Shown here piece by piece: positions 39,001 through 42,000 of a stretch of DNA of 64,000 nucleotides. How positions within the stretch are numbered: position 1 is the first letter of the stretch; the number at the start of each line of letters is the position of its first letter. The DNA is from an uncultured Chryseobacterium sp. (GTDB lineage: Bacteria > Bacteroidota > Bacteroidia > Flavobacteriales > Weeksellaceae), in contig NZ_CAJYMO010000318.1 of NCBI RefSeq assembly GCF_913776365.1, positions 27,227 to 91,226 of the forward strand, given 5' to 3'. A program made the position numbers.

Positions 39001-42000
39001 TCACTACGGTACAGTATGCTGCCGAAGGCAAAGAAATTTTCAGAGGACTGTTGGGCCTGACTCCCAAAACATTCGGGACTTTCTTTCATCTGAATACGCT
39101 TACCGTCCGTAAATCTGCTATGGACAGGCATCAGCTCCGCTTCAACCCGGATCTCAGGGTTCACCAGGATTCCGATTTTATCATCAGGCTGGCCTATCAC
39201 TGTCACCTGAAATCGGGTATTATTGATAAAGCTGTTGCAGTAAGAGGCGTACATGATAATAACCGGATTACCAAGATCGTCCGGTATTCCAGAAAATACA
39301 ATGAACGCCAGTACAGATTATGGAATTCACTTTATCTCTGGTCTGAAACGGTAAAGGTAGATCATGATGTTAAAAAACATGTATTCCTGCAAAATAAAGC
39401 CTTTGAACTGGCCGGACAGTCCGGAATAACAAAAGCGGTCCATCTGATAAAGACTTTCTTAAGCCATCCGGACATTTTAAAAACAAGATACCGCTTCACC
39501 TTCAGTAACTCACCTCAATCCTAATAAAAACCCATGAATATTTCCGTTATCATTCCTGTTTATAACGCTGAAAAATATGTAACCCAGGCCGTAGAATCTG
39601 CCCTGCAGTTTAATGAAGTCAGTGAAGTAATCCTTATTGAAGACAAATCCCCCGACAATGCACTGGAGGTCTGCCGCCAGCTTGAAATCCGGCATGAAAG
39701 GGTGAAGCTGTTTCAGCATCCTGACCAAGGCAACCATGGCGCAGGCCCTACCAGGAATTTAGGTCTTGAAAAAGCCACGGGAGATTTCATTGCCTTCCTG
39801 GATGCGGATGATTATTATCTTCCGAACCGCTTCGATGCGGAGAAGGAACTCTTTAAAAATCCGGATGTGGAAGGGGTTTACGGAGCCTTGGGCGTTCATT
39901 ATTATTCGGATAAGGCTAAAGAACAGTATTACCCTATTTTCGGAGACCGGCTGACAACCGTATACAAAAAACATGATCCGAAAGAGGTATTTCCGGGACA
40001 GATCAGCATGCGGGGAAGTTTCGGACTTTTCAGTATAGACTGCCTGACGATCAGAAGATCGTCCATGACTGAAAAACTGAATCCCTTTTTCAAAACCCAT
40101 CTGAGGCTCCATCAGGATACGGAGTTCCTGTTCAGGCTGTCTTATTATCTTGATCTCTATCCCGGAATTCTTGACCAGGCGGTTGCCATGAGAGGCGTCC
40201 ATGAAAACAACAGGATTACAGCAATCGATTCAAAAAAAGTAAAGCCCGCCACCACCCGGGTTCTCCTCTGGAGGGAAATCCATCAGTGGGCACAAAATGA
40301 AAATACCCTGCCGGCAGAAGTAAAACTCCACATCCATCGCATGCTCCGCAGTTATGAAATCGCCCTTGCTACTCCGGTGAAAAGATGGCAGATGATTGCA
40401 AAATACCTGGTTACCGATTATCCGAGCATCAGATCAGGGTTGTATAATATTAATTTCAGGGAATATCTATTTTGACTTCCCTTTTTTGGAAAGAATTGAG
40501 TCCGCAATCTGTGCCGTAAAAATCTTTCCGGATTCTTTATACATATGGTTACCGTCTGTATAAATATAATCCTCTTGTTTTGAAGAAAAATCGAAAAATA
40601 CAGCATTGTGTTGGCGGGCAATATCACGAATCAGAATGCTGAATTCCGGAGAATATTGATTCTCAATAGCCATCATTCCTTTAAATGCCGGAATACGTAC
40701 AATATATACTTTGCCTCTCTGATTGAGATATTCAATTATTTCCTGTAAAGCATTCAGTCTGAATGGGGAAATTTTCTGCTTGTCAATCATCGCCCTGTAA
40801 CCCTCAACTTTTTTTATTTCACGTTTCCTGATACTGTCCTGATTAATGTCAACTGTGACTTCCATCCAACCGTTTTTATGCAGAAACGTATTTGACCTTA
40901 CGACAGACTCCCTTTCCTTAACTATATTAAACCAGCTTCTGGGATAGTGCTTTATGAGATATTCATAATTAGGCGTCATATTAAAGAAATGCATATCTGC
41001 CAAAGGAGAATTTTTATCGGGATCTCCGTTTTCGCTGTCCCATTCCTCATCAACGGAAAGACACCAAGGGTCTACTGTAAGAATAAAAATACCGTTTTTT
41101 GTATCAGGAGCAATCTTCTTTTTGATGGCTTCAAGATAAACTTTACCATAAGGCGAATCACCGATATTGAATGCAAAATTAATGAATTGCCTGTCTTTGA
41201 ACTTCCGGTCAAGAACATCCGGAACAACAGCCTGTACACCACGTGAATCGCCTAATATCATATTATCCGGCGGCGGCCCGGTGAAATGCCGGTAGTTATC
41301 ATCCGTATTACCGTCTGCATAACTTCCCAGAAATAATAGCACACCCAGAATACCGATACCGTACAAAGAAATTTTAAATAAAAATTTTTTCATAACTAAA
41401 ACTGTTCATAAATGAAATTTCCAGCACCGAAAATTCCGAAATACATAATCATAAAAACAAGAAAGATATAAATGGTCCTGCGGATCAGCGGCCTGAATCT
41501 GCTGATTTCGAGCCCATGTTCCTTATCCTTATTGATCCAGTCTATAATGACCAGGATACTAATCAGGCCCAAAATTTTGATTTTAACAAACTGTGGTACT
41601 GAAAACAAGGATGTACTAAAAATTTTCATATACATTCCTAATGCAGCAGACAGATCCGGGGCAACAAACAGCACCAGCGCAAAGCAGACCATAAGCATGG
41701 TGAGGAGAATATTGCCCAGCTCTTTGGCTGTAGGGAAAGTTCCTGAAATTTTCTGCTTTTTATTCATCTTATTATTAACAATCAGCGGAATGTAGTACAA
41801 TCCATGTAACAGCCCAAATAAGACAAAGGTTACCCTCGGACCGTGCCATGCACCGATTAAAATAAAATTCAGTATAATAGCTGCTATAAGGCCTTTCTTT
41901 TCATAATCTCTGAACCGGATTACCAAAGGCGTAAAAACATATTCCGTAAGCCAAGAAGTAAGAGAAATATGCCATTTCCGCCAGTACTCTGCAATATTCT

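Follow-up and report, generated by a model that had tools for sequence, protein, structure and literature searches.

A fused-tail MBOAT and its SGNH-fold partner as probable halves of a carrier-fed acyl relay in a Chryseobacterium polysaccharide locus

Introduction

The acyl-tyrosine relay of MBOAT-SGNH protein pairs has been worked out only recently, and the known pairs fall into two groups: the Dlt system, with a carrier protein and a separate DltX, and the others, which use acyl-CoA and carry the shuttle motif as a fused tail (PMC12148441). In these non-Dlt MBOATs, the DltX-like motif FXYXXF is fused on two extra helices (Anderson et al., PMC12148441). PatA acetylates the tyrosine of its own motif and PatB takes the acetyl group from an acetyl-tyrosine peptide, both shown experimentally (PMC12148441). 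Here, we describe an MBOAT and an anchored SGNH-fold protein encoded next to each other in a 64,000-nucleotide stretch of DNA from an uncultured Chryseobacterium sp. (contig NZ_CAJYMO010000318.1); the whole stretch is referred to as the window. We suggest that the two proteins probably form an MBOAT-SGNH acyl relay, one acting in the membrane and the other in the periplasm, and that this relay, fed by an acyl carrier protein (ACP) and primed by an FkbH-type loader, decorates the polysaccharide of the surrounding Wzm/Wzt locus.

The PatA/PatB pair, which O-acetylates peptidoglycan in Neisseria and Campylobacter, has the same C-terminal FXYXXF fused on extra helices (FIYANF in NgPatA) and the same separate, N-terminally anchored periplasmic SGNH partner with a block I Ser and a block V DxxH, also in a diderm host (PMC12148441). 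Its complex model likewise has the active sites facing each other and the tail not docked. The differences are in the donor and acceptor, which are acetyl-CoA and MurNAc for PatA/PatB, and here most likely an FkbH-loaded acyl-ACP and probably O-polysaccharide. The Dlt system (DltA, DltC, DltB, DltX and DltD), responsible for D-alanylation of teichoic acids in Firmicutes, follows the same path from carrier protein to MBOAT, tyrosine hexapeptide and anchored SGNH-like enzyme, and a small carrier protein beside the MBOAT is common to both. However, there is no gene for an adenylating ligase such as DltA in the block described here, where FkbH occupies the loader slot and implies a glycolysis-derived hydroxy-acyl group in place of D-alanine. 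The motif is fused to the MBOAT, whose gene ends 2 nucleotides (nt) from that of its partner, whereas DltX is a separate microprotein, and the host here is a diderm that lacks teichoic acids. AlgI with AlgJ/AlgX/AlgF (alginate) and WssH (cellulose) have the same fused C-terminal shuttle motif and modify an exported polysaccharide in the periplasm, but they use acetyl-CoA, have partners of other families and lack a carrier protein or FkbH. OatA and the other AT3-SGNH O-acetyltransferases also hand an acyl group from an outer-face acyl-tyrosine to an SGNH serine, and an AT3 gene heads the present block; they differ in that the membrane domain is of the AT3 type and fused to the SGNH domain, and in the use of acetyl-CoA.

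FkbH and OzmB reportedly dephosphorylate 1,3-bisphosphoglycerate and load the glyceryl group onto an ACP, and this glyceryl-ACP formation serves polyketide extender-unit and tetronate biosynthesis. These systems have the same FkbH_N domain, HAD-IIIC DxDxT motif and acyl-transfer domain with a conserved Cys, with a dedicated small ACP alongside. They differ from the block here, which has no polyketide synthase or ketosynthase and in which the acyl-ACP is followed by an MBOAT that would export the acyl group. The tailoring enzymes are also different, being a VOC protein, a MaoC-like dehydratase plus an SDR, or an S-adenosylmethionine (SAM) methyltransferase, and not the FkbK/I/G set.

Taken alone, a tail with an SGNH neighbour is what the published systems (PatA/PatB, AlgI, Dlt) would lead one to expect. 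The novelty lies in the conserved FkbH-ACP feed with its swappable tailoring slot, not in the pairing of tail and SGNH protein. The cassette joins the carrier protein of the Dlt type with the fused tail of the other group, and the loader is replaced by FkbH. This loader, which goes beyond what a first-pass annotation of the same DNA had pointed out, defines what is unusual in the cassette.

Results

The MBOAT gene (P0002) lies at 41396-42814 on the minus strand and encodes 472 amino acids (aa) from a TTG, or 471 aa from the ATG at codon 2. Its translation closes with FGAGNFIYEQF ahead of a TAG stop at 41396-41398. The C-terminal hexapeptide F-I-Y-E-Q-F, an acyl-shuttle motif of the FXYXXF type, occupies 41399-41416 (minus strand), with the codon of Tyr469 at 41408-41410. 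A spacer of exactly 2 nt (41394-41395) separates this stop from the ATG (41393-41391) of the partner gene P0001, at 40467-41393 on the same strand. P0001 is a 308-aa, SGNH-fold protein, N-terminally anchored and facing the periplasm, and is the proposed terminal O-acyltransferase. Its sole hydrophobic segment is N-terminal (helix residues 2-24 in the model, and the only Kyte-Doolittle stretch). The motif GDSRG covers residues 48-52 (G48-D49-S50-R51) and DGNH residues 280-283; the codons of Ser50, Asn72, Asp280 and His283 are at 41244-41246, 41178-41180, 40554-40556 and 40545-40547, respectively. The first-pass annotation had described the same tail, spacer, single anchor and two motifs, all of which can be read in the sequence, and its end coordinate of 41425 merely takes in the last ten MBOAT codons.

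P0002 matches the MBOAT family (PF03062, E 1.2e-12, 48.3 bits against a cut-off of 27). The nearest solved relative, found with a profile against the Protein Data Bank (PDB), is DltB (6BUG/8JEM, E 1.6e-40). With the TIGR04091 model for DltB it scores 156.8 bits, under the cut-off of 375, and is thus homologous to DltB and not an equivalog. The DltB-like core runs to about residue 390, where the profile-to-DltB alignment ends, and hydropathy places two extra hydrophobic segments beyond it (403-428 and 443-469), which bear the tail. His324 in the motif WHG (41843-41845) is invariant in an alignment of 28 sequences and aligns with the WHG of DltB, and the tail Tyr and the final Phe are invariant in the same alignment. 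Among the matches listed, all 120 MBOAT homologues, down to 49% identity, have [FY][ILM]YxxF at the exact C-terminus, and many of them are automatically named AlgI. Such conservation of the FIYEQF tail is more than chance. The His, the C-terminal FXYXXF and the two extra helices of the fused-tail class (PatA/AlgI type) are all present; P0002 has the sequence-defined features of that class, but probably not its acyl-CoA donor. The fused C-terminal tyrosine shuttle proposed in the first-pass annotation fits the published motif, fused as in PatA, while its placing of the MBOAT His as a covalent station of the relay has to be given up, since this His is described as a catalyst that promotes transfer to the Tyr and not as a carrier of the acyl group (PMC12148441).

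The partner was modelled with AlphaFold2 from an alignment, with a mean predicted local distance difference test score (pLDDT) of 82 and a predicted template modelling score of 0.82, and the model has the SGNH alpha/beta fold. Except for two designed scaffold entries, all of the 50 Foldseek matches listed are of the SGNH family; the top-ranked one is PatB of Neisseria, and DltD is also among them. G48-D49-S50 follows strand 44-47 and D280-x-x-H283 precedes helix 286-306, which are the canonical places of SGNH blocks I and V. All 34 close relatives retain G48-D49-S50-R51 and D280-x-N282-H283, and G48, S50, N72, D280 and H283 are invariant in 41 relatives of 30-67% identity. Ser50, His283 and Asp280 form the putative catalytic triad. 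The oxyanion-hole blocks are non-canonical, with no GxND, and the invariant Asn72 after the second strand is the best candidate for the oxyanion-hole residue. The oxyanion hole of PatB is likewise non-canonical (PMC12148441). The first-pass annotation had staked its reading of P0001 as the periplasmic terminal transferase on an SGNH fold for 40467-41393, and the model and Foldseek give that fold; together with the likeness to PatB and DltD and the invariant Ser, Asp and His, the modelled fold argues for this identity.

Against Pfam and NCBIfam, no model matched P0001 at E<=0.01, with Lipase_GDSL_2 appearing only at E 0.028. DUF1574 is faintly matched by 7 of the 41 relatives, and the Atlas neighbours of P0001 are automatically named DUF1574 or SGNH/GDSL. 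The family has 835 representatives (50% clustering, E<=1e-3), with 370 at E<=1e-30. The DltD model (PF04914) finds no match in P0001 or anywhere in the genome, which is 90.8% complete; among the 41 relatives it matches one, at E 0.028. As a separate observation, the juxtamembrane stretch A-D-G-N-T-D-D-x-Y-x-H of P0001 (residues 26-36, 41286-41318) is invariant or nearly so within Chryseobacterium, with G28, D31 and Y34 almost unchanged even among distant relatives. The pLDDT of the model drops below 50 at residues 28-31, and residues 26-36 have no confident contact in the complex model described next.

The MBOAT and P0001 were predicted as a complex with a score of 0.67, whereas none of three controls rose above 0.01. 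The pair thereby reaches the mark set for this score, as did 58 of 80 solved complexes but only 2 of 110 mismatched pairs. Contacts were 100% shared among the three runs, and the pLDDT of the partner was 86 or more. On the P0001 side, the confident contacts involve the anchor helix (residues 1-19) and the S153-W154-F155 loop; on the MBOAT side, they involve residues 182-191 and 448-459, the latter being the last helix, just ahead of the tail.

The pair closes a block of genes in the order AT3, FkbH, GT-C-like, ACP, VOC, MBOAT and SGNH on the minus strand; from FkbH through the SGNH gene, neighbours either overlap at their start and stop codons or leave gaps of 2-10 nt. P0006 (44766-46493, minus strand) is an FkbH-type loader with FkbH_N, HAD-IIIC phosphatase and acyl-transfer domains (PF21211, E 8e-70; TIGR01686, 297.4 bits against a cut-off of 146.65; TIGR01681 is matched too). 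Two of its motifs, D276-x-D278-x-T280 (the HAD DxDxT) and S545-C546-R547, stay unchanged across 16 diverse sequences, and we take the invariant Cys of the transfer domain to be the acyl-enzyme residue, after OzmB. The nearest solved structure, which covers the N-terminal and HAD parts, is 3SLR (E 2.4e-146). The longest FkbH open reading frame, from a TTG at 46628, would give 620 aa. Orthologues have 574-577 aa and align from residue 40-46 of it, and Met46 (ATG at 46493) is the sole Met among the first 80 residues; the start is most likely this ATG, which puts FkbH about 147 nt from the AT3 gene, room enough for an internal promoter.

P0004 (43194-43430, minus strand) is a 78-aa ACP (PF00550, PP-binding, E 3.5e-7) with Ser39, the phosphopantetheine site, in the motif W-D-S-L (43314-43316). 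Curated ACP models stay below their cut-offs and the DltC model reaches only E 0.006, so that P0004 is a generic ACP and not DltC. Since the DltB, DltC and DltD models are all unmet at their cut-offs, and there is no DltA or free DltX, this is not a Dlt system. P0003 (42811-43194, minus strand) is a 127-aa metalloenzyme of the VOC/glyoxalase fold (PF13669, E 7e-14), proposed to tailor the acyl-ACP. It has weak matches to the glyoxalase I and methylmalonyl-CoA epimerase models, and its nearest solved relative is a clostridial glyoxalase I (2QH0/3HDP, E 9e-20).

Gene order links the FkbH-ACP genes to the pair. We searched 201 Chryseobacterium genomes for FkbH and MBOAT and cross-tabulated the results by hand. 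An FkbH orthologue (at least 74% identity) is present in 60 of the 201 genomes, and an MBOAT gene lies downstream on the same strand in 60/60; the two are on one contig in 59 of the 60, and on different contigs in G518. Forty of the FkbH-bearing genomes have an MBOAT orthologous to P0002 (clade 1, 73-82% identity, with a clean gap to the next matches at <=51%), and the other 20 have an MBOAT of a second clade (44-51%) at 0.27-1 kb from FkbH. Among the 141 genomes that lack an FkbH orthologue, no clade 1 MBOAT was found, so that clade 1 occurs in 40 of the 201 overall. Around the orthologous MBOAT, an ACP gene (72-86% identity) lies upstream and an SGNH gene downstream in all 29 loci fetched, and the full order FkbH, optional gene, ACP, tailoring slot, MBOAT, SGNH is kept in all 14 loci that were extended. 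Two alternatives fill the slot between ACP and MBOAT. A VOC gene is there in the window and in 16 of the 29 other loci; the remaining 13, L045 (7108-8216), L048, L050 and L051 among them, have genes for a MaoC-like dehydratase and an SDR instead. The optional gene between FkbH and ACP encodes a 302-aa SAM methyltransferase in L049 and L052-L055, and a GT-C-like protein only in the window. In one locus (L046:3316-10934, genome G452) a single FkbH is followed by two tandem ACP-MBOAT-SGNH modules, the first with an ACP, an MBOAT of 47% identity ending in FIYAQF and an SGNH protein of 30% identity, the second with an ACP, a VOC protein, an MBOAT of 79% and an SGNH protein of 55%. The link between FkbH-ACP and MBOAT persists while the MBOAT clade, the tailoring genes and the neighbouring genes are exchanged. 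The ACP thioester that the first-pass annotation had named as putative donor gains strong support from this synteny (ACP in 29/29 loci, FkbH with MBOAT in 60/60 genomes).

We also looked beyond the genus, in 401 Bacteroidota genomes. The MBOAT gene is directly upstream of the P0001-family gene in 5/5 full-length matches; a sixth match is an 86-aa fragment with no adjoining MBOAT. An FkbH-like gene is present in 24 of the 401 genomes, and 15 of these loci were read. Three of them, from other Bacteroidota families (L056, L058 and L059), have FkbH, ACP and MBOAT followed by an anchored GxS...DxxH protein with the DxxH near its C-terminus. The fourth tail residue (E/Q in this clade, F elsewhere) was considered as a marker of carrier-fed MBOATs and ruled out, because FkbH-ACP-linked MBOATs of other Bacteroidota end in FIYFQF or FIYFKF and because the second ACP-linked Chryseobacterium MBOAT clade ends in FIYAQF.

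The block is enclosed by an ABC-transporter-dependent polysaccharide locus of about 35 kb (~17073-52105), with sugar-nucleotide enzymes, many glycosyltransferases and hexapeptide acyltransferases. Pfam identifies the ABC-2 permease Wzm at 20508-21347 and the ABC ATPase Wzt, with a Wzt_C domain, at 21349-22548, both on the plus strand. With Wzm and Wzt in the locus, the polymer would be exported whole to the periplasm, within reach of membrane-bound decorating enzymes, and the locus polysaccharide is the likely source of the acceptor glycan.

Discussion

We suggest the following relay. FkbH, to judge from its family membership, would load a glycolytic C3 unit as a glyceryl thioester on Ser39 of the ACP. 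The VOC protein could then alter this thioester by alpha-proton chemistry, most simply by epimerisation at C2, which is the weakest step. The MBOAT, with His324 as catalyst, would take the acyl group off the ACP on the cytoplasmic side and place it on its own Tyr469 at the outer face, and the FIYEQF tail would pass it to Ser50 of the SGNH protein, in the putative triad Ser50-His283-Asp280. The SGNH protein would finally esterify a hydroxyl of the exported, undecaprenyl-linked glycan. Because the pair always stands behind its own carrier protein and FkbH, the product is probably a C3 hydroxy-acid ester on a surface polymer, rather than acetate. Glyoxalase I and methylmalonyl-CoA epimerase both act through an enolate next to a thioester. 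Since this chemistry is common to both relatives of the VOC protein, C2 epimerisation of glyceryl-ACP is the simplest guess, with elimination of the 3-hydroxyl as an alternative. In the sister loci that have them, MaoC and SDR would dehydrate and then reduce the group to give lactyl-ACP. To judge from the alternation of VOC with MaoC plus SDR, an almost unchanged MBOAT may handle more than one kind of C3 acyl group.

A broader proposal is that Chryseobacterium and other bacteria with the cassette esterify an ABC-exported O-polysaccharide with a glycolysis-derived C3 hydroxy-acyl group in the periplasm, by an undescribed hybrid relay that is FkbH-loaded and has a fused tail. The slot (VOC, or MaoC plus SDR, with or without the SAM methyltransferase) would set the acyl group as a glyceryl epimer, a lactyl group or a methylated form, and the acyl group would then be a swappable serotype determinant. 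On this proposal as a whole we are evenly balanced. A literature search, with subscription journals outside its coverage, found no description of an FkbH-ACP-fed MBOAT cassette; the only paper found that joins FkbH, MBOAT and 'acyl carrier protein' is a review of the aeruginosin natural products. If the proposal is true, the donors of fused-tail MBOATs would be shown to include acyl-ACP, and glycerate- or lactate-type esters of bacterial surface glycans, for which few transferases are known, would gain a genetic explanation. Acyl chemistry would, moreover, be diversified by the swap of one small tailoring gene. A function would also be assigned to a sizeable unannotated family, that of P0001, whose 835 cluster representatives have no Pfam model beyond a faint DUF1574.

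Several points weigh against the proposed relay. Our analysis demonstrates motifs, their conservation, an SGNH fold, a conserved gene order and a predicted MBOAT-partner interface, whereas the chemical steps, the donor, the identity of the acyl group and the acceptor are all inferred. What the VOC protein would do is a guess, its nearest solved relative being a glyoxalase I. Neither a single-sequence nor a profile search of P0001 against the PDB detected similarity to PatB, DltD or any other solved protein. The first-pass annotation had expected the tail to dock in the SGNH active site of a modelled complex; an interface through the anchor helix is predicted, but MBOAT tail residues 466-471 and the Ser50 pocket are absent from the confident contacts. 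This absence neither supports nor refutes the shuttle. The score of the complex may itself reflect likeness, because MBOAT-SGNH complexes have already been modelled or solved for Dlt and PatAB. The count of 60/60 overstates independence, because the Chryseobacterium genomes are kin. Moreover, 11 of the 15 FkbH loci read across Bacteroidota have no MBOAT, most of them being FkbH plus ACP, and FkbH-ACP also feeds other acyltransferases. Conversely, MBOAT and P0001-family pairs occur with no adjacent ACP or FkbH in three loci of other Bacteroidota (L007, L009 and L010), where the pair can presumably run on another donor such as acetyl-CoA.

These last two findings, together with the published view that fused-tail MBOATs use acyl-CoA without a carrier protein (PMC12148441), would also fit a conventional O-acetyltransferase pair like PatA/PatB or AlgI that depends on acetyl-CoA, with FkbH, ACP and VOC feeding a separate cytoplasmic acylation of the same polysaccharide. 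The locus has further acyltransferases (of the hexapeptide, AT3 and WbqC-like types) that are in keeping with such a division. We nevertheless regard it as unlikely. The ACP, the gene order and the FkbH-MBOAT association are kept in every locus or genome of the counts given above, across two MBOAT clades and several tailoring variants, and two tandem ACP-MBOAT-SGNH modules stand behind a single FkbH in L046. In addition, the co-directional block has no other candidate user of an acyl-ACP, and the closest solved relative of the MBOAT is DltB, which is carrier-protein-dependent. Thus, we favor the carrier-fed relay: the MBOAT-SGNH pair is a general module and FkbH-ACP a general donor module, and their joining in this lineage is hard to explain as that of unrelated neighbours.

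The two other explanations concern the final step. The 308-aa SGNH protein could be a periplasmic esterase that removes or edits acyl groups and not the terminal transferase. The SGNH fold alone cannot separate hydrolysis from transfer, and esterases or thioesterases, such as TesA, acetyl-xylan esterases and sialate O-acetylesterase, make up most of the top structural matches. However, each full-length partner gene found has an MBOAT gene immediately upstream, the predicted complex places the membrane anchor against the last MBOAT helix beside the tail, and PatB and DltD, which have the same architecture, are proven transferases, so that we consider an esterase very improbable. The relay could also be real and its acceptor be elsewhere, such as in peptidoglycan, in lipid A or a core sugar, or in protein O-glycans. 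None of our results shows the acceptor, and yet the cassette sits at the same place in variable Wzm/Wzt-type loci of many Chryseobacterium, beside conserved GT2 glycosyltransferase genes, and just 60 of the 201 Chryseobacterium genomes have it. Such a distribution fits a serotype-specific decoration rather than a core envelope function, and makes another acceptor a somewhat weaker prospect still than the acetyl-CoA pair. We therefore retain the locus polysaccharide as the likely target of the carrier-fed relay.

Other features of the locus

The gene between FkbH and ACP in the window, P0005 (43441-44769, minus strand), encodes a 442-aa polytopic membrane protein. It has no Pfam match, and is called GT-C/PMT_2-like from its neighbours by language model and predicted structure; Atlas neighbours are named PMT or GT39 (score 0.99, template modelling score 0.76). 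It is found at this position only in this strain and is missing from all 14 sister loci. Contigs from independent runs and studies span both of its junctions, and the insertion is therefore not an assembly artefact. P0005 probably entered the block by insertion and serves a glycosylation step of its own in the periplasm. The first gene of the minus-strand block, P0007 (46641-47669), encodes an AT3-family membrane acyltransferase (PF01757, E 2.9e-32) and is likely an independent O-acetyltransferase.

Two paralogous GT2 genes (38577-40475, plus strand) converge on the SGNH gene, the second overlapping its 3' end by 9 nt. A GT2 copy of 69-80% identity is kept at this position in all 14 sister loci, and may thus belong functionally to the decoration block. 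Beside Wzm/Wzt, at 22555-25037 (plus strand), genes for a DegT-type aminotransferase, a WbqC-like protein and a hexapeptide acyltransferase would likely supply this polysaccharide with an N-acylated amino sugar. Three plus-strand open reading frames without a Pfam match, at 30885-31553, 32532-33323 and 35506-36657 (222, 263 and 383 aa), are kept in some sister loci.

A second MBOAT gene (~40% identity, tail FIYFQF) lies directly upstream of FkbH in five sister loci (L043:12202-14601, L045:2657-5060, L049, L050 and L053). It supplants the AT3 gene in four of these five and stands beside it in L050. This MBOAT has a partner of its own, an anchored protein of 321-331 aa with the motifs GSSK and DTGH. 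An hhalign comparison of the 321-aa partner with the P0001 family gave a probability of only 33.6% over the N-terminal 93 columns, although its GSSK and DTGH are at matching places.

The structure 3SLR, the nearest to our FkbH, is Bacteroides fragilis BF1531, which is still deposited as an uncharacterised protein. In one RNA library, only four contigs of 169-217 nt fall on the block; DNA carry-over is possible and transcription is not demonstrated by them. Plant and phyllosphere metagenomes, as well as several other runs, contain DNA nearly identical to that of the window.

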